Assembly: GCA_964647725.1 (NCBI GenBank)
Contig: CAZYJI010000004.1
Location: forward strand, 52,633-116,632
Direction of reading: 5' to 3'
DNA: 64,000 nt
Source: an uncultured Alphaproteobacteria bacterium
GTDB taxonomy: Bacteria; Pseudomonadota; Alphaproteobacteria; SHNJ01
Position numbers and translations under genes: made by a program. The stretch's first letter is position 1, and the number at the start of each line of letters is the position of its first letter. This document shows, piece after piece, positions 9,739 to 64,000 of the stretch. The notes beneath the pieces are model-generated. The model did not search any database, had not been told where the DNA came from, and was given only the letters and a program-made list of their open reading frames with translations.

Positions 9739-10509
9739 ATGAAAATAGCCTGTTGGAACGTTAATTCAATAAAATCAAGGCGGGAGCATTTGATGCGCTG
9801 GATGCACGATGTGCAACCCGATGTCGTTATGCTGCAAGAATTAAAATGTACGGCCGAGGATTTTCCGGCCCTAGAATTATCCGGGCTTGGGTACCATGCC
9901 GAATTGGTTGGGCAGAAAACTTATAATGGCGTCGCGATCCTATCGCGCCTTAAATCCCAGATCGTCCATTCCACCCTGCCTGGCGATGATGCGGATTTGC
10001 AGGCGCGTTATATCGAAGTCGATTTGCCGGATGGCTGGCGATTGATCAATATCTATGTGCCGAATGGCCAAGCGGTTGGATCCGATAAATTCGATTATAA
10101 ATTGAAATTTTATGAACGGCTGCGCGCGCATATTCAATTGGCGCTGGCAACTGAACGTAAAGTCGTTATTGGCGGCGATTTCAACGTGGCATTGCAAGAT
10201 ATCGATGTGTTCGATGCCAAGGTGTGCAAAGGCGAAGTGCTATTTTCCAATCCCGAACGCGCCGCGTTGCACAGTATTATCAACTTAGGTCTGGTTGATT
10301 GCTATCGCGCCCTCAATCCGGGTGCGATGGAATTTTCCTGGTGGGATTACCGTGCCGGTGGGTTCGAACGCAATTTGGGATTCCGCATCGATTATTTGTT
10401 TGCCAATGCCTATGCGGCGCAAAGATTGAAATCCGCGACCATCGATAAAACACCGCGCGGATGGGAAAAACCATCCGATCATACGCCCGTTGTTATTGAG
10501 TTGAACTAA
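9739..10509 (+). CDS. xthA: exodeoxyribonuclease III
   Basis: MKIACWNVNSIKSR, LQELK, and a C-terminal SDHTPV are EEP/ExoIII family signatures. Confidence 0.95.
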   Translation: MKIACWNVNSIKSRREHLMRWMHDVQPDVVMLQELKCTAEDFPALELSGLGYHAELVGQKTYNGVAILSRLKSQIVHSTLPGDDADLQARYIEVDLPDGWRLINIYVPNGQAVGSDKFDYKLKFYERLRAHIQLALATERKVVIGGDFNVALQDIDVFDAKVCKGEVLFSNPERAALHSIINLGLVDCYRALNPGAMEFSWWDYRAGGFERNLGFRIDYLFANAYAAQRLKSATIDKTPRGWEKPSDHTPVVIELN

Positions 10510-10919
10510 ACACCTACTTGCACAACGTCCGCGAATTTGGCGCGGAAGATTTGTTTTTGCATCAGACTGCGTTTCATGTGATCCATCGCCGCATCGACGG
10601 TGGCTACGTTTTTATAGGCATACATGACCGGCGCTACATCGCCCATGGATGGCCGGCTGACGGCACTGATGGCCAATGGCGCAACGGCTGGTTTGCCGAC
10701 TTTCATATACCGTTTTTGTGGAACCGGTTTATAAAAAGTATTTCTGATCGCTTTGCGCGCTGGATTTACGGCCGCGAATGCCAATCCACCGCAAGTCAAA
10801 GCCAATAATTTGTACGAAATTTTCGCTGGCAGGAATGCAAGGCTAGCGGCCATTTTAAAACTGCCAGTGATCGCGAAAAACACGAAACGGCAAACATAAC
10901 GGGATAAATTGAAATACAT
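10506..10919 (-). CDS. hypothetical membrane-associated protein
   Basis: 137-aa ORF with hydrophobic N-terminal segments. It is convergent with xthA and their stop codons overlap. A CtrA-type box lies upstream. Confidence 0.5.
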   Translation of the reverse strand: MYFNLSRYVCRFVFFAITGSFKMAASLAFLPAKISYKLLALTCGGLAFAAVNPARKAIRNTFYKPVPQKRYMKVGKPAVAPLAISAVSRPSMGDVAPVMYAYKNVATVDAAMDHMKRSLMQKQIFRAKFADVVQVGV

Positions 10920-11064
10920 GCCAAACCTGTTCTTTTATAGTTGTTTTATGGGTTCAGAATATATGGCGGGGGTTAGCAAATAGTTTAAATTAGCTAAAAT
11001 GTACGATAGTAAATTACGGCGGATATAAAGGTCACAGATATGGCCGTGAATGTGGCAAGAAAAA

Positions 11065-11080
11065 TTAACGCTTTATTAAC
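11065..11080. promoter_or_regulatory. CtrA-type box TTAA-N7-TTAAC
   Basis: The sequence is ttaacgctttattaac. It lies about 150 nt upstream of the minus-strand ORF that starts at 10919. Confidence 0.4.
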
Positions 11081-11085
11081 CAGCA

Positions 11086-11114
11086 CATAAAAAAGCGCCC
11101 GATTGGGCGCTTTT
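11086..11114 (-). terminator. rho-independent terminator of the small ORF 11137-11370
   Basis: Stem aaagcgccc / gggcgcttt with loop gatt. It is followed on the minus strand by TTTTTTAT. Confidence 0.6.
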
Positions 11115-11136
11115 GCAAATAAGAATAATCAAAGCT

Positions 11137-11370
11137 CTATTTCCTACTGCCTCTGGTACTTACTGCCTCTTCAGCAACTTTCCGCGCAACGGCAGAAGCA
11201 CTTAGAAGAGCTTGGGTCTGTTCAGGCCTATCACTTAGTTCCAGAAATTCGGCTGCAGAAGCGCCATGATGACCTGTCGAAGGAGTCAATCCGGTTTTTC
11301 GCGCATTCATTCTTCTAATAGTATCGGCCTGTTCTGGGCGGCCGTCCATTTCCCAAATTGTTAAATCCAT
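11137..11370 (-). CDS. hypothetical small protein (77 aa)
   Basis: AGGAG lies 6 nt upstream of the ATG and a terminator hairpin follows immediately downstream. I recognise no family. Confidence 0.5.
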   Translation of the reverse strand: MDLTIWEMDGRPEQADTIRRMNARKTGLTPSTGHHGASAAEFLELSDRPEQTQALLSASAVARKVAEEAVSTRGSRK

Positions 11371-11450
11371 TGATGGCTCCTATAACTTTTAATTTTGAAG
11401 CATAGTATACTTTTAGGATACAACAATCAATAATAATTTAAGCAATAAAG

Positions 11451-14183
11451 TTACCCAGCAATCCGTTTCAGGGCTGATTGCAATTTTTCCTGAATCTCGG
11501 CCGCTTCGGCGCGTTTTTCACGTACCTCTTCTACTGCGTCTTCGGCGGCGTTTTCCATGAATTTAGGATTGTTCAACTTGGCATCCAACTTGGCCAGCTC
11601 GTCGGCCAATTTCTTCATTTCTTTTTCCAGGCGCGCGCGTTCAACGCCAAGGTCGATTACATCGGCGACCGGCAATACGATGGTTGCATCGCGCACGATA
11701 CCGACCACTGCGCCTTTCGGCAAATCGCCGACGACATGATTGATGTCTTTCAACCGGGCCAGGCGCATGATGACATCGCGGTATTGATCCGCCTGCGCTT
11801 TTTTCGCAGGGCTGATATCCTTGAACAATAACGACAATGGCGCGGATGGGGAGATGTTCAACTCCATGCGCAGCGTGCGCACGGTGCTGATCACATCGAT
11901 CAACCAATTGACTTCATCGGCCGCATTTGCATCGACCTTAATCGCATCGTATTTCGGCCATGGTTCGGTGATCAATGGGCGATCATGATTGAACGATAAT
12001 TTTTCCGACAATTCCTCGGTAATGAACGGCATGAATGGGTTCAACATATGCGTCAATTGCGAGAGTGCCCAGGCGGTGGTTTTGCGTACTTCGGATGCCG
12101 CGATGATATCTTCGCTGGCCAGAATCGGTTTGGTGAATTCCAAATACCAATCGCAGAAACTGCCCCAGGTGGTGTGATACAGCATATTGGCCGCTTCATC
12201 GAAACGGTAATCCGCAATCGCCGCGGATAATTTCTTTTCCAATTGCACGATTTCACCGATGATCCATTTATTGATCACGTTGGTGGCGGTTGCGGGATCG
12301 AAATTCGCATCGAACGCGCAGCCATTCATTTCGCAAAACCGCGCCGCATTCCATAATTTGGTTGCGAAACTGCGATATCCGTTTATGCGGTCGGTAGACA
12401 TTTTAATGTCCCTGCCCGGCACCGATAACGCCGCCAAGGTGAATCGCAACGCATCGCAACCAAATTCATCGATGGTCGATAATGGGTCGATCACGTTGCC
12501 CTTGGTTTTCGACATTTTTTGTCCCTTGGCATCGCGCACCAAGGCGTGGATATAAATTTCGCGGAATGGCACGTCCTTGATAAAGTGCATGCCCATCATC
12601 ACCATACGCGCCACCCAGAAGAAAATAATATCGAATCCGGTTACCAAAACATCGGTTGGATAATACCGTTTTAATTCATTCCAATCGGCGCGCTTATCAT
12701 TGCCATTTTCCCAGCCAAGCGTTGAAAATGGCCAAAGGGCGGAAGAAAACCAAGTATCCAGAACATCTTGATCCCGAACCAGCACGATAATTTTATCGGT
12801 GTTTGCCGTGCGGGTTTCGACCGGCTTGTTCGGATCGTTCTGCACGTATACTTCGGTATTGTTGTAATGTTTTTCGGCTTGTTTGATAACATCCGCGTCA
12901 TCCATGCCGACAAAAACTTGCCCGTCCGGGCCGTACCAGGCAGGGATCTGATGCCCCCACCATAATTGGCGCGAAATGCACCAGGGCTGGATATTTTCCA
13001 TCCAGCTGTAATAGGTATTTTCCCATTTTTGCGGCACGAATTTAATTTTGCCCGTGCGCACCGCATCGATCGCCGGTTTCGCCAGCGTGACGGCATCGCA
13101 ATACCATTGATCGGTCAAATAAGGTTCGATGACGACGCCGGAACGGTCGCCGTGCGGAATGACCATGGCGTTATCTTCGATTTTTTCCAGCAATCCAAGC
13201 GATTCCATCTCTGCTACGAATTTTTCACGCGCCTTGAAACGGTCCATGCCGCGATATTCGGTTGGTGCCAATTCATTTAAATGGGCAGTTTTATCGAACA
13301 CATTCGGCATTGGTAAATTATGGCGTTTGGCGATTTCGAAATCGTTAAAATCATGCGCGGGGGAAATTTTGACCGCGCCACTGCCCTTTTCCCGGTCGAC
13401 ATATTCATCGGCAATAATTGGCAAAACATAATCCACCATCGGCAATTTGACTTTTTTGCCGATCAGTTTTTTATACCGGTCGTCTTCGGGATGAACCGCA
13501 ACCGCCGCGTCGCCGCCAAGCATGGATTCAGGGCGCGTGGTGGCAATCGTGATATAGCCATCCTCGCCAACCAGCGGGTAATGCAAATACCATAATTTGC
13601 CTTTGGTCGGGCGCTGTTCAACCTCCAAATCCGAAATCGCGGTTTGCAATTTTGGATCCCAATTCACCAAACGTTTATCGCGGTAAATCAATTTTTGTTT
13701 GTGCAATTCGACGAATACTTTGCGTACGGCATGAGATAAACCATCATCCAGCGTAAAGCGTTCGCGGTTCCAATCGGCGCTGGCGCCAAGGCGACGCAAT
13801 TGGCGGGTGATCGCCCCGCCCGATTCTTCTTTCCAGTGCCATACTTTTTCAAGGAATTTTTCCCGGCCCAAATCATGGCGGGTAACTTTTTGCTCGGCCA
13901 GTTGGCGTTCGACCACCATTTGCGTGGCAATCCCGGCGTGATCGGTGCCCGGCATCCACAACGCATCGCGGTTGGCACGGCGGTAATAACGAATCAGAAT
14001 ATCTTGGACTGAAAATGTCAACGCATGGCCCATATGCAAATTGCCGGTCACATTGGGCGGTGGCATCATGATGGTATAAGGTTTTTTAATCGATCCCGGA
14101 TGCGCGGCAAAGGTACCGGCCTGTTCGGCCCGTTCGTAATGTTTCTTTTCAATTTCGGCCGGGTTGTATGTTTTATCGAGCAT
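11451..14183 (-). CDS. valS: valine--tRNA ligase
   Basis: 910 aa with PPPNVTGNLHMGH (HIGH), KMSKTKGN (KMSKS) and a C-terminal coiled coil. Confidence 0.98.
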   Translation of the reverse strand: MLDKTYNPAEIEKKHYERAEQAGTFAAHPGSIKKPYTIMMPPPNVTGNLHMGHALTFSVQDILIRYYRRANRDALWMPGTDHAGIATQMVVERQLAEQKVTRHDLGREKFLEKVWHWKEESGGAITRQLRRLGASADWNRERFTLDDGLSHAVRKVFVELHKQKLIYRDKRLVNWDPKLQTAISDLEVEQRPTKGKLWYLHYPLVGEDGYITIATTRPESMLGGDAAVAVHPEDDRYKKLIGKKVKLPMVDYVLPIIADEYVDREKGSGAVKISPAHDFNDFEIAKRHNLPMPNVFDKTAHLNELAPTEYRGMDRFKAREKFVAEMESLGLLEKIEDNAMVIPHGDRSGVVIEPYLTDQWYCDAVTLAKPAIDAVRTGKIKFVPQKWENTYYSWMENIQPWCISRQLWWGHQIPAWYGPDGQVFVGMDDADVIKQAEKHYNNTEVYVQNDPNKPVETRTANTDKIIVLVRDQDVLDTWFSSALWPFSTLGWENGNDKRADWNELKRYYPTDVLVTGFDIIFFWVARMVMMGMHFIKDVPFREIYIHALVRDAKGQKMSKTKGNVIDPLSTIDEFGCDALRFTLAALSVPGRDIKMSTDRINGYRSFATKLWNAARFCEMNGCAFDANFDPATATNVINKWIIGEIVQLEKKLSAAIADYRFDEAANMLYHTTWGSFCDWYLEFTKPILASEDIIAASEVRKTTAWALSQLTHMLNPFMPFITEELSEKLSFNHDRPLITEPWPKYDAIKVDANAADEVNWLIDVISTVRTLRMELNISPSAPLSLLFKDISPAKKAQADQYRDVIMRLARLKDINHVVGDLPKGAVVGIVRDATIVLPVADVIDLGVERARLEKEMKKLADELAKLDAKLNNPKFMENAAEDAVEEVREKRAEAAEIQEKLQSALKRIAG

Positions 14184-58089: not shown

Positions 58090-58438
58090 ATCAGGGGTTT
58101 TTGGCCAAAATATTTGAATTCACGGTTAATATTACTGTTGACAGCGGCAAAATTGTAATTTCCTTAAAAGATATTTAGTGCACAGGAATAAAAGAAAGTT
58201 AATATTCGCTTTTGTTAATCCCCCGGGGTTGGTATATAAGAGATTCGATTACGCGCGGAATTACAGTCCGCGCCACAACGCCCAAATCGCCGAGGCAATT
58301 AGGGTTGATGTGGCGGCTAATTACCGAGGCGTAAAATACGAGGCCTAGCACCTCGTTGAGATTTTTATAATGCGGAGACGTGCCACCGTGAGCGCAAAGC
58401 GCGAGCGGCAAATAAAAAGGCCACGTCGAAGCGTATGC

Positions 58439-58532
58439 GGAGACGTGGCCGAGTGGCTGAAGGCGGCGGTTTGCTAAACCGTTATACGGTTGTAAAGCCG
58501 TATCGAAGGTTCGAATCCTTTCGTCTCCGCCA
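58439..58532 (+). tRNA. tRNA-Ser (anticodon GCT), CCA encoded
   Basis: Acceptor stem ggagacg/cgtctcc, anticodon arm gcggt-ttGCTaa-accgt, a long variable arm, T-loop ttcgaat, and a 3' gcca. Confidence 0.9.
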
Positions 58533-58763
58533 TTGAGTTCCGCACAAGTTGGCGGGTTCGCGTATTCGGCGGAATTGATCCGAGATTTCAAACGCTTGTG
58601 GCGAGGTTTTATTCTCCGCTACCCACACAAGCCTACATTCTCCAGGACATTTAAAAAATTATAGGCCATTTTCTCCGACCATTTCCCGCCAGTTCGCCTT
58701 TTGGTAATATGGCGAGAGAAAAATAGCGAAAGGCGAAGTGGGTTTGGTGCGAGACTCTTTGCA

Positions 58764-60485
58764 CTAAGATTCGGCCCCGAGTAGGACTTTCTTAAAAGCA
58801 ATCCCACATTTAAATTTTCTATCTTCTGTTAAGTATTTATGGCTATTCATTAGCTCGTACTGCGACATGAATGGCAAATCTTTAATTCCAAAGTTTTCGG
58901 CCTCATGAAGCACACAAAATATGATTTTGTAATCCCCCTCTAAAACATCAATGCTTTTCTCAGGAATTATGGATTTAAAAATTGCTTTATTTTTACCCGC
59001 ATTGACTTCATCGGTATTTGTTTCAATCCAATCTGTCATTTCTTTACGACAAACCGCATCCGTTGAGAACGCTCTTGAATAAAATCGTCCTTGAGTAAAT
59101 AAATGACTAATAGATGATGCGCCGGATGAATATTTTTTGACGTGTATTAAATGCTTATCTGCAGATAATAAGTCGCATACCTCATATTTTTTTTCTGAAG
59201 CAATTGTTATCTTTGCCTGATCGAACAAAAACAAAGATCCAGAACTCTGACACGCGGCAGCATTGTATATTTCCTCCCTATTTTGATTCCTTTCAGAATC
59301 AAATATTCTTATATTGCTAGGAAGATAATCCACACTCATATTTAAGTTGTTGCTTTGAAAATATCTTTTAACTTTTTCTTGCAAATCATTTGAAACTTCT
59401 CGCCACTGGCCATTTGACAATATGTATATTTTCTCATTAAGAGTGACTTCTGCCACCACGCATTGATATGCATCCCATTTTTCATAGGTTTTTTCTTGTT
59501 CGTGGTCATAAGTGTATATAGGCCATGACTTAATTGTAGATATTTTAAGATTAGCAATGCGCCGCCTTGGGGCGGCAATCAAATCATGTATATTTAAATC
59601 TTCAAATAAGGGGGGTGTTACTTGCCCTTCTTTCTTTTTATAACAATATGAAATATCGCTAAACTCTACAAACTCAGGAGGCGCAAGGTGGATCTTAGAA
59701 AAATTTTTATTGGATATTGTTTTGCATAGGATCGTATCTAGTTGATCTGTAATTTCTGGATCAGTTTCATGTCTCAATATATCATATACCTTAAAATCAG
59801 TCTGCTTATAGTCTTCGGAATGATACCTTTCCTCCATCTTCTTACATAGCTCTACTAATTTTGCCCAATCAAGAGGAGCATTTTCCGCAAACTTAAGAGA
59901 AATGCTGTCTTTGCCTTTAAATGAATCAATTATATTTTTGTAATCTTTATGCACACACCCAGAAATGGTGCGTAATAATTCGGATTCATTATTGATACCG
60001 AAAACTTTTAAATTAGCGCCCGTACTTGCCTGGCGCTCCGTTTGCTGACTAATGGATTCGTGTACAGTGGTCTGAATTTTTCTTAGATCATCTATATCAC
60101 AAATATTCATACCCACCTTGATACCAAAGTCTCTGGTAATATGATTCTTATCAAGGTAGCTGTCCCCATGTTGGCCAAAAGTAGCTACATAGCAAATATA
60201 TGTATTTTCTACCTTAATTTTTATAGCCAATATTGCCCTAGGAAACTTATTGAAGGCGCTATATCTATATTTAGTCTCAGAAAAAGCTGAATTAAGAAAG
60301 GCAATCCAAGGCACCTGACTTTCTGTTTTTTCTGCTCCTCCACCTACCGCATATTTAATGTATGCTTCGTACCCAGCGGCTTCATTATTAATATGATCAT
60401 AATTAGATAAATCACCTTTTAAAAATGCACCAAAATCTCTACCAACTTTTATTTTATATAGGTTAACCTTTTTCAATTCTGTCAT
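58764..60485 (-). CDS. DUF6119/TIGR04141-like protein with a C-terminal PD-(D/E)xK-like motif (last gene of the island operon)
   Basis: 573-aa AT-rich ORF. The N-terminus VNLYKIK and the C-terminal block YEVCDLLSADKHLIHVKKYSSGASSISHLFTQG match my recollection of the sporadically distributed TIGR04141 family. This was not verified by a search. Confidence 0.55.
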   Translation of the reverse strand: MTELKKVNLYKIKVGRDFGAFLKGDLSNYDHINNEAAGYEAYIKYAVGGGAEKTESQVPWIAFLNSAFSETKYRYSAFNKFPRAILAIKIKVENTYICYVATFGQHGDSYLDKNHITRDFGIKVGMNICDIDDLRKIQTTVHESISQQTERQASTGANLKVFGINNESELLRTISGCVHKDYKNIIDSFKGKDSISLKFAENAPLDWAKLVELCKKMEERYHSEDYKQTDFKVYDILRHETDPEITDQLDTILCKTISNKNFSKIHLAPPEFVEFSDISYCYKKKEGQVTPPLFEDLNIHDLIAAPRRRIANLKISTIKSWPIYTYDHEQEKTYEKWDAYQCVVAEVTLNEKIYILSNGQWREVSNDLQEKVKRYFQSNNLNMSVDYLPSNIRIFDSERNQNREEIYNAAACQSSGSLFLFDQAKITIASEKKYEVCDLLSADKHLIHVKKYSSGASSISHLFTQGRFYSRAFSTDAVCRKEMTDWIETNTDEVNAGKNKAIFKSIIPEKSIDVLEGDYKIIFCVLHEAENFGIKDLPFMSQYELMNSHKYLTEDRKFKCGIAFKKVLLGAES

Positions 60486-60515
60486 TTAATAGCTCAAAAT
60501 AAAAACTAAGTAGAT

Positions 60516-60704
60516 TTAAGAAACAACATTGTCGGCGATCATTTCTCTTAGACTTTCTATACTTAAGCGTGTTCCTAAGACCTGCAGTAACTCGCTCAGC
60601 TCTTTCACTTCCTTGAGACGCGGGTCTGGAACTTTGGGCTTTAGCTTCAGATAACTATCCAAACAAAGAATCAGCTCATCTCTAATCCAAGGGGGATTAC
60701 GCAT
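60516..60704 (-). CDS. 62-aa ORF resembling the N-terminal module found on some HNH-type nucleases (stand-alone or truncated)
   Basis: The ATG lies 1 nt after the stop of the 831-aa gene (TAGaATG). The sequence is NPPWIRDELILCLDSYLKLKP...ELSELLQVLG. Confidence 0.45.
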   Translation of the reverse strand: MRNPPWIRDELILCLDSYLKLKPKVPDPRLKEVKELSELLQVLGTRLSIESLREMIADNVVS

Positions 60705-60705
60705 T

Positions 60706-63201
60706 CTATTCTACATCCGCCGAATTTAATGCCGTTGAAGTGTCAACGATTTTTGGTAAATTTTCCGCCAGTGCCAATACTACATATGCGGCCCCACGGG
60801 CCGCCATTTTCCGAAAATCATCGGCAAACTCGGCAATATTGTTGACATTATTTTGATTGGCAGCATCCGAATGCTTCTTAAAAGATCGTTCAAAACCTAG
60901 CATTAATATCCTCATGCCAAGAATATATTTTTCTGTAACAACGTCTTTAGCCACCTTTCCACGTTGCTGCATTCTATATTTCAAATGATAAACATTATCA
61001 TAATTAATTTTATATATGACTTCATTATCTCCTAGATCTTGGATATAACCACCCTCATTCTCATCAAAACCCTCGGGCCATTGCTCGACTTTATATCCCG
61101 GTATTTCTTCACCAGTTCTAGACAAGAGAACACATAAAGGAAGCCCATGCGTGGGAGCCTCTGCTCCTTTTCCTTCCCCTTGTTTGCCATCTCCCGACTT
61201 AGGCTTAGCATTTTCGCGCTTCTTTGGATCTTGAATTTCGGCTTCTTCGACGATCCTAATTTTTAGAACTTCGGATTCAATCGGAGAGGAAATAGAATCG
61301 TCTTGCAACCCCATTTTGAATGTTAACTCATTACCTACTTCTATTTTGTCTTTGGCAGGCTCAAGATAAATAATTAAGCGGCCATTATATAAATGACTTC
61401 TTATTCCGAATTTATCTCTTACACTGTCAGGAATAAGCAGATGGCCGCGATTATCGGGTCGATTCAAATACCCATTCTCGGCGTCGGTTCTAGCAGAAAT
61501 AGGGCGCGCCTTATTTATCGGAATATCAATATATCCATCCACATATTTCTCTTCTAAACGTAGAAATGTGGGGCTGAACTTACCCTCAAAATGGCCTGAA
61601 CCGCTCTCCGCACCATTTCTTCCGCCTGCCGCCGGTAAGCGTATCTGAGGATCTCTATTAGAAAGCAATCCCGCAAGATTTGGATCAGCATTTACGAGTT
61701 TTTGGAATAGCGCATTGCTCTCCGAATCTTTTGCCAATTCAAATTCTTGTTGGGCAATTTTATTCTGCAGTTCTTTTAATGCTTCGGATTCTCTAATTAC
61801 TTTTGTGATTTCATTTTTATATTTTTCACCTAATGTCGTGTTACTGACGTGCTCTCTATCACCCTTCCAAATATCATTATGTGCTCCAAATTTTAATTGG
61901 CTAGCGTCAACAATAATTACAACGCGATCCTTTAGAGCAGGCAAACCACAAGATTGAGATAAATATCCGCGTGATTGCTTAAATTGGACCTGGCCGTTCA
62001 CGGCATGAAAAACTCGAGTGTTAGACTGCCTAAGCCAGCTAGGAATGTCATGCTTCAAAGGAATCGCACTGATCGTTATTTCGCCCAGTTTTGAGTCTTT
62101 GATTTCTCCTACATGAATCTTATCTTCCGATGCTGCAGCCGCATCATCTTCTAGATCTTCCAATCCTTCTTCTTTATGCGACCTACGGAGTAAGAATTCC
62201 ATTCCATAAAAGGGGCGCGGATCTATACCCTCCGCGCGGTCACCACCGCGCTTCTTCGCCGCCTCTAGTTTTTCTTTTGTAGTAGGAAGCTGTCTAAAAT
62301 CTAAAAGCCTAAAAGGCAGGATAGTTTCCACCAAATTTTCATTTAATGCTTCACGTGAGCCTCTAAAGCTCAAGAACTTCGAATCTACTTTGTAATCATA
62401 TAGTTTAATAACGGTACCAGCACCTAGCAGAACTTGCTCATATGTTTTATTGGTCATCGTTTTGAACGGAAATAATTTATCCATTTCAAATGAAGGTATC
62501 TCTTTATTCGGAATAAAATATTCGGCTACGGGCATATTATCTCCCGCATCTGGCCGGCGGCGGACCAAAGTCCACCCCCACATTCCTTTTCCATCAAAAC
62601 GTCGAGAAATAATTAATTTATACCACTTTTCTCCGCAATAACGCAGGACACCAGATGATCCCATGTTGTATTTGCCCTGTACAAAAGGCACCCCTCTCTT
62701 ATTTCCTTTACTTAGGGATAAAAAAGTATTTTCAAAATCTTTTGGATTTTGCCCTTCACCATTATCAACAAAAGTATAACAGGGTAGCCCCTCTTTTTTA
62801 TTTTTTGCACCGGTTATACCGATCACTAGATTTTTTATTGCAAAAGTACGAAGCCAGTCATCCTTTGGATCAAGATTAACCAACTTCCCTCCACGAAGAT
62901 TTTTAACCAGCTTGTCCACCGCCTCATACATCGTTTTTGGAGCATCAGATCCTTTAGGATCAATTTTTGCTTGATATGCATGCTTTAACAAAACCGCATC
63001 AACCATATTTGTCATAAGTTCGGTAAGAGCTTTGCCACCATCCGAAGCTTGATTTGAAGTTACGTTAAAATTTGTTTCTCTGCGATCTAACGGCTCCCAA
63101 TTTTTGGAGTCGCGCATTTCTTTGTTCGCAGACAAAATTTTATCTACTTCTTCTTCCGACTCAGCATACAAAAGGGAAAGGCACAGTGATTTGCTGTCCA
63201 T
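60706..63201 (-). CDS. GHKL (Bergerat-fold, HATPase_c_3 / MORC-like) ATPase, 831 aa, with a large uncharacterised C-terminal region
   Basis: N-box ELMTNMVDA (ExxxNxxD), G1 box FVDNGEG, G2 box GKYNMGSSG. GGAG lies 8 nt upstream of the ATG. Confidence 0.8.
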   Translation of the reverse strand: MDSKSLCLSLLYAESEEEVDKILSANKEMRDSKNWEPLDRRETNFNVTSNQASDGGKALTELMTNMVDAVLLKHAYQAKIDPKGSDAPKTMYEAVDKLVKNLRGGKLVNLDPKDDWLRTFAIKNLVIGITGAKNKKEGLPCYTFVDNGEGQNPKDFENTFLSLSKGNKRGVPFVQGKYNMGSSGVLRYCGEKWYKLIISRRFDGKGMWGWTLVRRRPDAGDNMPVAEYFIPNKEIPSFEMDKLFPFKTMTNKTYEQVLLGAGTVIKLYDYKVDSKFLSFRGSREALNENLVETILPFRLLDFRQLPTTKEKLEAAKKRGGDRAEGIDPRPFYGMEFLLRRSHKEEGLEDLEDDAAAASEDKIHVGEIKDSKLGEITISAIPLKHDIPSWLRQSNTRVFHAVNGQVQFKQSRGYLSQSCGLPALKDRVVIIVDASQLKFGAHNDIWKGDREHVSNTTLGEKYKNEITKVIRESEALKELQNKIAQQEFELAKDSESNALFQKLVNADPNLAGLLSNRDPQIRLPAAGGRNGAESGSGHFEGKFSPTFLRLEEKYVDGYIDIPINKARPISARTDAENGYLNRPDNRGHLLIPDSVRDKFGIRSHLYNGRLIIYLEPAKDKIEVGNELTFKMGLQDDSISSPIESEVLKIRIVEEAEIQDPKKRENAKPKSGDGKQGEGKGAEAPTHGLPLCVLLSRTGEEIPGYKVEQWPEGFDENEGGYIQDLGDNEVIYKINYDNVYHLKYRMQQRGKVAKDVVTEKYILGMRILMLGFERSFKKHSDAANQNNVNNIAEFADDFRKMAARGAAYVVLALAENLPKIVDTSTALNSADVE

Positions 63202-63223
63202 CTAAACTTCTCCGATTTATGTT

Positions 63224-63448
63224 TTATTTCAATGAGAACTCGCCTTCGGTCGACTCCCCGGAATTCTCAAATCTATACTTACAGGCCTTAAGTTCTTTGT
63301 TCAGGGTCGAGAATACTTTGTCTATATCCCCTGCAGAATAATTGTAGCTGGCCTTATTTGATAAATTCCCAATCAATCGAATGGTTTTAATCGCGTTATT
63401 GACGCGCTTATTGGCCAACCTTATGAAATTTTCTCTCTTATCGCTCAT
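63224..63448 (-). CDS. 74-aa helical protein, first gene of the island operon
   Basis: The ATG at 63448 has GGAG upstream. The product begins MSDKRENFIRLANKRVNNAIKTIRLIGNL. The track ORF extends to 63535 through an AT-rich region. Confidence 0.55.
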   Translation of the reverse strand: MSDKRENFIRLANKRVNNAIKTIRLIGNLSNKASYNYSAGDIDKVFSTLNKELKACKYRFENSGESTEGEFSLK

Positions 63449-63582
63449 TACATTCTCCAAATAAATTAGGATTATATTCAAAATATATCGCATATATATA
63501 AAATATACGCAATATATATTTTTGAGTGCGGCCAACGGGCATCGGATATATAGTAGAGTTGGGCTTATCCACCTACATAATG

Positions 63583-63610
63583 TTGATTTTCTTGAATTTT
63601 TTCTTATAAT
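63583..63610 (+). promoter_or_regulatory. near-consensus sigma70 promoter of the methyltransferase gene (-35 TTGATT, 16-nt spacer, -10 TATAAT)
   Basis: The -10 element ends 8 nt before the ATG at 63619. This implies a leaderless or near-leaderless mRNA. Confidence 0.5.
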
Positions 63611-63618
63611 GACACCCT

Positions 63619-64000
63619 ATGTCCCGCCCTACATCCATTTATGATCTTCACTCCCATCGGTTGACCGCCTTAAAAGCGAAGTCACATAAAGAACCATGTT
63701 TCTTTGCCGTAGATTTCTTTTGCGGAGCGGGGGGCACCACTAGAGGCTTAATCGATGCCGGAGGATATGTAATTGCCGGTATTGATAACGATCGCCTATG
63801 CGGCAAGACATTTTCCGACAACAATCGTAATCTTTCATTGGACAAATCATATGCAAAATACCTGCAATATGATGTATTTCCTAAGAGGCCAGATTACCCC
63901 ACCGGCCAACAGAAAGAGCTATCTCTAGAACTCGAAAACTTAATCGGCCCCTTGCGTAAAGCATATCCGCATATCCCATTAATGTTTTCAATTTGTGCGC
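63619..64000 (+). CDS. dcm: DNA (cytosine-5)-methyltransferase, N-terminal 127 codons (continues beyond the window)
   Basis: Not in the ORF track because it is open-ended. My translation gives MSRPTSIYDL...AVDFFCGAGGTTRGL (motif I, FxGxGG) and ends ...PLMFSICA, the start of motif IV (PCQ). Confidence 0.88.
   Translation, partial: MSRPTSIYDLHSHRLTALKAKSHKEPCFFAVDFFCGAGGTTRGLIDAGGYVIAGIDNDRLCGKTFSDNNRNLSLDKSYAKYLQYDVFPKRPDYPTGQQKELSLELENLIGPLRKAYPHIPLMFSICA

Follow-up and report, generated by a model that had tools for sequence, protein, structure and literature searches.

An island beside tRNA-Ser in an uncultured alphaproteobacterium carries a conserved Dcm, Vsr and GHKL ATPase module, a candidate methylation-gated restriction-like system

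We analyzed the AT-rich island at positions 58533–64000 of a 64,000-nucleotide (nt) stretch of DNA, hereafter the window, from an uncultured Alphaproteobacteria bacterium (GenBank assembly GCA_964647725.1, contig CAZYJI010000004.1). The island is best explained as a meeting of three unrelated things, a reading to which we assign a probability of about 0.6: a mobile module consisting of the C5-cytosine methyltransferase Dcm, Vsr, a 74-amino-acid (aa) protein (s74) and an 831-aa GHKL ATPase (GHKL831); the stub of an HNH endonuclease gene; and a solo DUF6119 gene. As part of this reading, the stretch would be the cargo end of a prophage-like element of at least 14.7 kb, lying beside tRNA-Ser(GCT). 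The gene content of the island, the conserved linkage within the module, the GHKL fold and motifs of its ATPase and the independence of DUF6119 are all direct observations. The module itself is best read as an uncharacterised MORC/paraMORC-type, methylation-gated system of a restriction-like kind. An earlier annotation made from the letters of the window (the original prediction) had treated four minus-strand genes as one operon and, together with dcm, as a single defence system. The protein-coding features are as follows.

58764–60485, minus strand: DUF6119/TIGR04141 protein, 573 aa (Pfam, NCBIfam, PHROG)
60516–60704, minus strand: 62-aa open reading frame (ORF), N-terminal remnant of an HNH endonuclease gene (partial homology)
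60706–63201, minus strand: GHKL831, 831-aa GHKL ATPase (motifs, Foldseek, linkage to Dcm)
63224–63448 from its ATG, minus strand: s74, 74-aa predicted helical hairpin, conserved small partner; the mechanically called ORF reaches a TTG at 63535
63619–64000, plus strand: 5' part of dcm, C5-cytosine methyltransferase, with its ATG at 63619 and cut by the window end (translation)

The four minus-strand ORFs are separated, in this order, by gaps of 30, 1 and 22 nt and are divergent from the methyltransferase gene, in exact agreement with the gaps first given for them.

The conserved Dcm, Vsr and GHKL831 module

We searched the ORFs of 60 genome loci that carry GHKL831 homologues (41–69% identity; Pseudomonadota to Chloroflexota and Acidobacteriota) with the window proteins. 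Each species was sampled by a single genome, and eight plasmids were included as well; the ORFs at these loci are the product of mechanical calling, many loci are metagenome-assembled genomes (MAGs), and some are frameshifted. Partners were counted in the 37 loci with an intact GHKL831 homologue and at least 3 kb on either side. A closely related Dcm was found within 3 kb of GHKL831 in every one of them (37/37) and Vsr within 10 kb in 31, while DUF6119 lay near GHKL831 in none (0/37). The linked Dcm proteins are near-orthologous (phmmer E mostly 1e-120 to 1e-171). The suspicion that dcm and the GHKL ATPase belong together, which was to be checked by co-localisation, is thus borne out.

The genes come in two layouts. 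In the divergent layout, which is that of the window, vsr and dcm are followed by s74 and the GHKL gene facing away. In the second, seen mainly in Dehalococcoidia, dcm, the GHKL gene and vsr form a same-strand operon of overlapping or near-abutting genes, with dcm overlapping the GHKL start by 4 nt and vsr lying a few nt past the GHKL gene. The small partner s74 was present in 17 of 21 divergent loci and in none of the 15 same-strand loci. By phmmer, s74 was found in 35 loci, always immediately upstream of the GHKL gene; it shows a strongly conserved motif (RLAxKRVxxAxKxIxLIGNLSNxSNYxY) and gave no match in Pfam, NCBIfam or PADLOC. The divergent layout often also includes, directly upstream of dcm (20 loci), a gene for a ~65-aa MerR_1/HTH_17 protein (e.g. 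L004:9293–9496, between s74 and dcm) that resembles a controller protein. This helix-turn-helix (HTH) gene is absent from the window, where there is only a 170-nt intergenic region. The closest relatives (64–69% identity) have the same core and nothing further conserved; in L078, for example, the core is directly followed by glmU/glmS-like genes. The partner counts, the two layouts and the closest relatives together lead us to conclude that the conserved unit is Vsr, Dcm, an optional HTH protein, s74 and GHKL831. Three of these partners were missing from the original prediction: Vsr, which lies just past the window, s74 as a conserved component and the MerR-type HTH protein of other loci.

At L047, L049, L053, L058 and L059 the GHKL831 homologue is split into several ORFs (region ~10001–12470; 2723–5203 in L058). 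Sequencing frameshifts and real decay are indistinguishable at these loci, as most are MAGs. L047, with its split GHKL gene, is the sole well-flanked locus without Dcm.

The part of Dcm encoded in the window includes motif I (DFFCGAGG) and the beginning of motif IV (FSICA). The rest of the gene and vsr, both of which the original prediction had proposed to look for beyond the window, were found together with a serine recombinase gene on a public contig (L001) that is 100% identical over an overlap of 5,541 nt and carries the island 9.2 kb further. The whole Dcm has 435 aa and matches PF00145 (E 1e-42), as expected of the methyltransferase of a type II restriction–modification (R-M) system; its relatives in the PDB are M.HaeIII and M.HhaI. 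Next comes vsr, which is convergent with dcm, overlaps it slightly and encodes 122 aa (PF03852, E 2e-18).

GHKL831 contains the three motifs of its superfamily: motif I (ExxxNxxD; E61, N65, D68), motif II (DxGxG; D146, G148, G150) and motif III (GxxGxG; G176..G181). Across 51 close homologues the motif residues do not vary, and of eight distant homologues at least seven keep them. Because the ATP-binding and catalytic residues are invariant, GHKL831 is expected to be an active ATPase. A Foldseek search of the PDB with an AlphaFold model returned Hsp90 (8fx4, E 6.5e-9), HtpG (1y4u, 1.4e-8), TopoVI-B (1mx0, 6e-6) and SMCHD1 (6mw7, 2e-5), with alignments of ~450–490 columns over two-domain ATPase modules and low template-modelling (TM) scores of 0.2–0.3. 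These matches and the invariant motifs show that the Bergerat-fold assignment made earlier was right. The model is of moderate quality (predicted local distance difference test (pLDDT) 63; predicted TM-score 0.45) and suggests a GHKL plus transducer-like domain (~1–480), a coiled segment, Ig-like β-sandwiches (~540–735) and a C-terminal helical hairpin. Residues 402–408 carry a conserved NGQ..K motif, and D573, R581, N733 and D735 in the C-terminal half are kept even in relatives of 25–33% identity.

Profile searches recovered little of this. The whole protein has no Pfam match at E≤0.1 and no significant match in NCBIfam or PADLOC. For the N-terminal 330 aa the best Pfam model was HATPase_c_3, which stays below threshold (E 0.06; 13.8 bits against a cut-off of 25), and the middle and C-terminal parts had no Pfam match in a domain-wise scan at E≤10. 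Compared with solved structures by sequence, both a single query and a 24-sequence profile gave chance matches only. Pfam, NCBIfam and PADLOC, a sequence search of the PDB and Foldseek all failed to reveal a nuclease domain in either GHKL831 or s74. PADLOC-DB 2.0.0 returned zero matches at E≤0.1 for all four window proteins, consistent with the earlier observation that no known defence core is recognisable. The family comprises more than 1372 homologues or clusters at 90% identity clustering. A 50% identity library of 1.84 billion representatives held 1738 clusters at E≤1e-3 and 575 at E≤1e-30, most of them 750–850 aa long. Among the viral contigs of IMG/VR there was one GHKL831 locus and there were only three DUF6119 loci; neither gene is commonly phage-borne in that collection.

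We also looked at distant relatives of GHKL831 (25–33% identity, n = 8). In Devosia (L069:973–7400), Hymenobacter (L064:5974–11436) and Ensifer (L070:1–7415), the phosphorothioation genes SspA, SspB or SspD adjoin the GHKL831-like gene. Orphan SspBCD modules with 'missing' restriction partners have been noted (PMC8092258), and the Ssp-linked genes could be one of these partners. They are neither SspE nor SspFGH. We considered SspFGH and rejected it on the published features of its components, a Walker A motif in SspF and an FtsK-like SspH (PMC8092258). As the window proteins and all eight distant relatives gave zero PADLOC matches, SspFGH, DrmE, Mza and every other model of that PADLOC release were rejected for all of them. 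Two haloarchaeal plasmids have a distant relative divergent from a 748-aa Dcm, with a DrmA helicase next in one. On that plasmid (Halarchaeum pCBA1220-03; L075:3245–12515), a 910-aa GHKL831-like gene lies between the 748-aa Dcm and DrmA (PADLOC E 3e-156), which suggests a DISARM-like system with a GHKL component. A relative in Halogeometricum is divergent from another type II methylase, and two have no obvious modification partner. What unites the superfamily is a DNA-modification module rather than Vsr.

The HNH stub, the DUF6119 gene and the surrounding element

The 62-aa ORF, once counted as a component of the operon, is instead the N-terminal stub of an HNH endonuclease gene. Homologues occur in only 2 of the 60 loci, both beside the module's vsr: an intact 233-aa protein with an HNH domain (PF01844, residues 158–213) in L051, and a 58-aa stub in L059. 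The window's ORF aligns with the N-terminus of the L051 protein over residues ~6–42 only (49% identity), and a tblastn search of 58400–64000 found no counterpart of the HNH motif or domain. Since the match is confined to the first ~40 residues and the HNH motif is missing, the ORF is a gene remnant, a dead HNH stub.

The identity of the 573-aa protein was correctly guessed at the outset: it matches DUF6119 over its full length (PF19614; E 7e-114, 381.8 bits against a cut-off of 27, model positions 2–522 of 524), as well as TIGR04141 (E 5e-93, 312 bits against a cut-off of 35) and phrog_18579 (E 3e-140). A search of the literature on DUF6119/TIGR04141 found nothing functional. Foldseek with the AlphaFold model (pLDDT 85) gave nothing at E≤0.001 in the PDB and no significant match in BFVD. 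There were weak partial matches to XPF and HamA (probability 0.44–0.47), and phage RdgC in BFVD (E 7.5e-3; TM 0.21–0.29) is a weak lead only. Sequence and profile searches of the PDB gave chance matches only. The C-terminal ~170 residues of the model show the element order (H, helix; E, strand) H404–414, E431–434, E439–441, E445–451, H454–475, E520–527. This order, taken with the invariant residues E404, D438, K450 and Q465, is tentatively compatible with a PD-(D/E)xK core.

For comparison, we examined 57 other DUF6119 loci, ~0.5 Mb in total. GHKL831 is absent from all 57, just as DUF6119 is absent from all 59 other GHKL loci. A distantly related Dcm is present in three of the 57; no neighbouring family is conserved among them, and neighbouring genes lie on either strand at random. 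DUF6119 is a lone gene in P. aeruginosa and Brucella, shares a defence island with HsdR, GmrSD and DarTG in Rhizobium and a mobilisable island with HipA and Fic in Maridesulfovibrio, and lies between two integrase genes in a Pseudomonas prophage. It is probably an autonomous, single-gene cargo of nuclease type, serving defence or exclusion, with the nuclease assignment tentative.

These counts bear directly on the proposal that the four minus-strand genes and dcm make up one defence system, with Dcm marking self, GHKL831 as the sensor and DUF6119 as the effector. The genes do share a strand, with gaps of only 22, 1 and 30 nt and no terminator-like hairpin before the end of DUF6119, and the nuclease-like C-terminal domain of DUF6119 would supply what GHKL831 does not recognisably have. 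At L085:4325–8731, moreover, a different module (Vsr, Dcm and a 265-aa unknown protein) is followed after 117 nt by a DUF6119 gene that shares 56% identity with that of the window, on a contig with a type IV secretion system coupling protein; we take this arrangement as defence-island clustering. Yet GHKL831 and DUF6119 never co-occur across the 59 and 57 loci, the closest GHKL831 relatives lack DUF6119, and DUF6119 has no conserved neighbour and stands alone in unrelated contexts. In the window itself, a dead HNH stub separates the two genes, and the composition of DUF6119 is unlike that of the module: its GC content at third codon positions (GC3), 0.30, is the lowest of the island, compared with 0.34–0.42 for vsr-dcm-s74-GHKL831. 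A single system is therefore very improbable and, as a conserved one, largely refuted; neither a conserved four-gene operon nor DUF6119 as its effector survives the comparison.

The three-part reading also accounts for the setting of the genes. The remaining features are as follows.

58439–58532, plus strand: tRNA-Ser(GCT) (ARAGORN; Rfam RF00005, 58.6 bits)
58689–58741, minus strand: inverted repeat with 18-nt arms and a 17-nt spacer, just 3' of the DUF6119 stop (repeat search)
63449–63618, no strand: divergent intergenic region between s74 and dcm, with a sigma-70-like TTGATT-16-TATAAT at 63583–63610 facing dcm
~63619–73201 in window numbering, past the window end (L001:1–9583): prophage-like continuation

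GC content is 0.389 at 58533–64000 versus 0.484 at 1–58532, and a sliding profile drops from ~58500. Host-like sequence thus gives way to the low-GC island at tRNA-Ser(GCT), as originally described, and the low GC supports the idea of a foreign island beside the tRNA. Past the window, L001 carries dcm, vsr, genes for a large serine recombinase with DUF2924, DUF8426, a terminase large subunit, DUF5681 and a ParB_N-N6_N4 methylase, in this order. GC3 is 0.30–0.42 from vsr to DUF6119, 0.56–0.57 in host genes and 0.52–0.57 in the phage-like genes. The phage-like part is host-like in GC3, and the vsr-to-DUF6119 stretch is thus foreign to host and phage-like genes alike, which points to a block of cargo at one end of a prophage-like element. 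L001 breaks off inside the tRNA-Ser gene, at window position 58460; this is consistent with a presence/absence junction or with a tRNA repeated in that sample. The 3' direct repeat of tRNA-Ser that the original prediction had proposed to look for was not found within the 14.7 kb of extended contig.

A repeat search and an Rfam scan of the island revealed only the tRNA and one hairpin. The latter, the inverted repeat at 58689–58741, is a possible terminator of the minus-strand genes; the 30 nt that separate the 62-aa ORF from DUF6119 hold no comparable hairpin. Promoter and terminator scans were uninformative, with fewer promoter-like sites than in shuffled sequences, and the sigma-70-like site at 63583–63610 is a consensus match only.

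Elsewhere, the GHKL831 module is found in prophages, integrative and conjugative elements (ICEs) and defence islands, and its distribution is sporadic and mobile. Several other genes were seen next to it. A HEF_HK-like protein of ~745–990 aa, with an N-terminal HATPase_c_3 and a C-terminal HATPase_c domain, recurs beside the module (L038:5460–8800, L042, L049, L034, L028:12780–17565 and L040:12531–17262), partnered by a Response_reg_2 protein or a ~360-aa unknown protein. In the two closest metagenomic relatives, an ORC-CDC6-like protein of 1224–1232 aa and a ~390–416-aa partner adjoin the module on opposite sides (L076:10109–15050; L077:187–5023), possibly another mobile defence pair. A trio with a Dcm-associated GHKL ATPase, known from defence islands, directly adjoins the module in L020, L040 and L051.

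A proposed mechanism and its rivals

How might such a module work? Dcm would put 5-methylcytosine (5mC) on a specific site of resident DNA. Vsr would repair the T:G mismatches that arise from Dcm methylation and so limit the mutational cost of 5mC, a role that is established biology. GHKL831, the presumed restriction-side component, may act as a dimer, probably with s74, that clamps unmarked DNA through ATP binding and hydrolysis. The clamped DNA would then be inactivated, either by a cryptic catalytic site in the conserved C-terminal half or by MORC-like trapping or compaction; recruitment of Vsr or of a neighbouring nuclease would be an alternative route. We infer, rather than observe, a role in defence, the distinction of DNA by its methylation, clamping and any nuclease activity. 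In the window, DUF6119 seems to have inserted into the HNH gene or taken its place; at least one relative has that gene in intact form next to the same module. Of the original prediction, then, the part in which Dcm marks self and the GHKL ATPase is the sensor or clamp still offers the most economical reading; the part that made DUF6119 its effector is lost.

Several points weigh against this interpretation. Neither GHKL831 nor s74 showed a nuclease domain, and a model with a pLDDT of 63 can neither confirm nor exclude a cryptic site. Since no Pfam, NCBIfam or PADLOC model covers the GHKL831 family, the term 'restriction-like' is taken from context. The four genes lie close together (gaps of 22, 1 and 30 nt), with no terminator ahead of DUF6119; co-transcription and a local functional link are conceivable. 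The DUF6119 gene of L085 (56% identity) is also just downstream of a different Vsr-Dcm module. Finally, the comparison ORFs are mechanical calls, many from MAGs and some with frameshifts.

The main rival is a cassette with epigenetic and repair roles, not defence, with GHKL831 as a MutL-like helper that loads or stimulates Vsr at T:G mismatches arising from deamination of 5mC, as E. coli MutL does. The interaction of MutL with Vsr is established (cited in PMC2292703). Vsr is the sole nuclease in the core, GHKL831 having none, and in the Dehalococcoidia operons vsr follows within a few nt after the GHKL gene. But at 6 of the 37 intact loci Vsr was missing within 10 kb, although all have Dcm, and the distant relatives pair with Ssp genes, a non-Dcm methylase or DrmA without Vsr. 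In addition, Foldseek ranks Hsp90, TopoVI-B and SMCHD1 nearer than MutL, and the distribution is sporadic and mobile (prophage, ICE, defence island). We consider a repair role unlikely.

A second, unlikely possibility is that the core acts as a hub for interchangeable neighbouring nucleases. This has some contextual support: L051 has an HNH gene next to the core, remnants of one are present in the window and in L059, and paraMORC1 co-occurs with MORC and HNH genes (Iyer et al., PMC2292703). Most loci, however, including L078 and many of the 37, keep an intact GHKL831 without an adjacent nuclease. The neighbouring modules are, moreover, complete systems themselves, and DUF6119 is clearly autonomous elsewhere.

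We also entertain, as a speculative idea with low odds, that GHKL831 and s74 are a nuclease-free, methylation-gated clamp. Such a clamp would trap, compact or silence DNA without the Dcm mark and would do so without cutting; the ~800-aa superfamily would then be the 'reader' arm for 5mC, phosphorothioate and DISARM-type systems. If true, it would be a prokaryotic counterpart of eukaryotic MORC silencing and a mode of restriction without an endonuclease.

The GHKL831 family is sizeable and invisible to Pfam, NCBIfam and PADLOC, yet tied to Dcm in every well-sampled locus. If GHKL831 restricts unmodified DNA, it would be a new ATP-dependent restriction partner without a recognisable nuclease. 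It would also give an experimental handle on the GHKL clamp of MORC/paraMORC systems, predicted in 2008 and almost untested, and would be relevant to the origin of DNA-methylation reading by eukaryotic MORC proteins. DUF6119, for its part, is carried by prophages, ICEs and defence islands and makes a clean candidate for a nuclease that acts as a single gene in defence or exclusion. There is a warning for annotation as well: tight spacing of genes in an island is not proof of one system.

Comparison with known systems

In classical type II R-M systems with Dcm and Vsr, as in the divergent layout here, the M and 'R' genes are divergent, vsr lies beside M, an HTH gene is upstream of M (20 loci) and the whole is mobile. 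The differences lie in the 'R' position, which is taken by an 831-aa ATPase without a recognisable endonuclease fold plus a 74-aa partner, and in the HTH protein, which is of MerR type, not Xre type, and is missing in the window. No cognate restriction endonuclease was found in the core, where Vsr is the sole nuclease. For DUF6119, the likeness is to Hachiman HamA and other PD-(D/E)xK defence nucleases, with which it shares the element order, the E..D..xK..Q pattern and a weak Foldseek match. It differs in having no HamB-like helicase partner and no significant match to a solved nuclease.

Two described groups of GHKL proteins resemble GHKL831 in part. HEF_HK/Response_reg_2 two-component-like elements adjoin C5-methylases (Bellieny-Rabelo et al. 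2021, PMC8011034); here too GHKL genes are enriched beside a C5-methylase and Vsr, and such pairs flank the GHKL831 module in six loci. GHKL831 itself, however, has no second HATPase_c, no HEF_HK domain and no Response_reg_2 partner, and none of these is present in the window. The paraMORC3 protein VcSduA of Vibrio cholerae is Shedu type I-D, a validated antiphage system (PMC12137116). It shares with GHKL831 the GHKL ATPase and a predicted dimeric clamp architecture. VcSduA is a single protein with a C-terminal DUF4263 PD-(D/E)xK nuclease and no methylase partner, whereas GHKL831 is always paired with Dcm and has no DUF4263, its C-terminal 296 aa being without a Pfam match even at E≤10.

The closest likeness is to the MORC and paraMORC1–5 ATPases, GHKL proteins found in operons with Dcm, Vsr, helicases and nucleases, for which DNA looping between recognition and cleavage sites has been proposed (Iyer, Abhiman and Aravind 2008, PMC2292703). 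GHKL831 shares with them an N-terminal GHKL domain with intact ATP motifs and a family-specific C-terminal extension, as well as the neighbourhood of a C5-methylase and Vsr and a sporadic, lateral distribution. Their S5-like transducer may have a counterpart in GHKL831, as the two-domain Foldseek alignments, with their low TM-scores, suggest. With paraMORC1 it also shares occasional HNH and second-GHKL neighbours. It differs in falling below the Pfam HATPase_c_3 threshold (E 0.06), in having no conserved SF-II helicase or RE-fold nuclease, in its dedicated 74-aa partner and in its own absence from PADLOC. Its C-terminal half, modeled as Ig-like sandwiches and a helical hairpin, is neither the RecB-like nuclease of paraMORC3 nor the TIR domain of paraMORC4, and no HxH as in paraMORC5 was seen. 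Going only by context, and by its published description, paraMORC1 would be the best fit. The original prediction drew on a link of GHKL/MORC ATPases to R-M-like systems; a GHKL, Dcm and Vsr theme has been described computationally (PMC2292703). PADLOC names no such system, and the theme was already predicted in 2008. By architecture and context, GHKL831 fits the MORC/paraMORC kind, itself mostly a computational prediction, within a general theme that is 18 years old.

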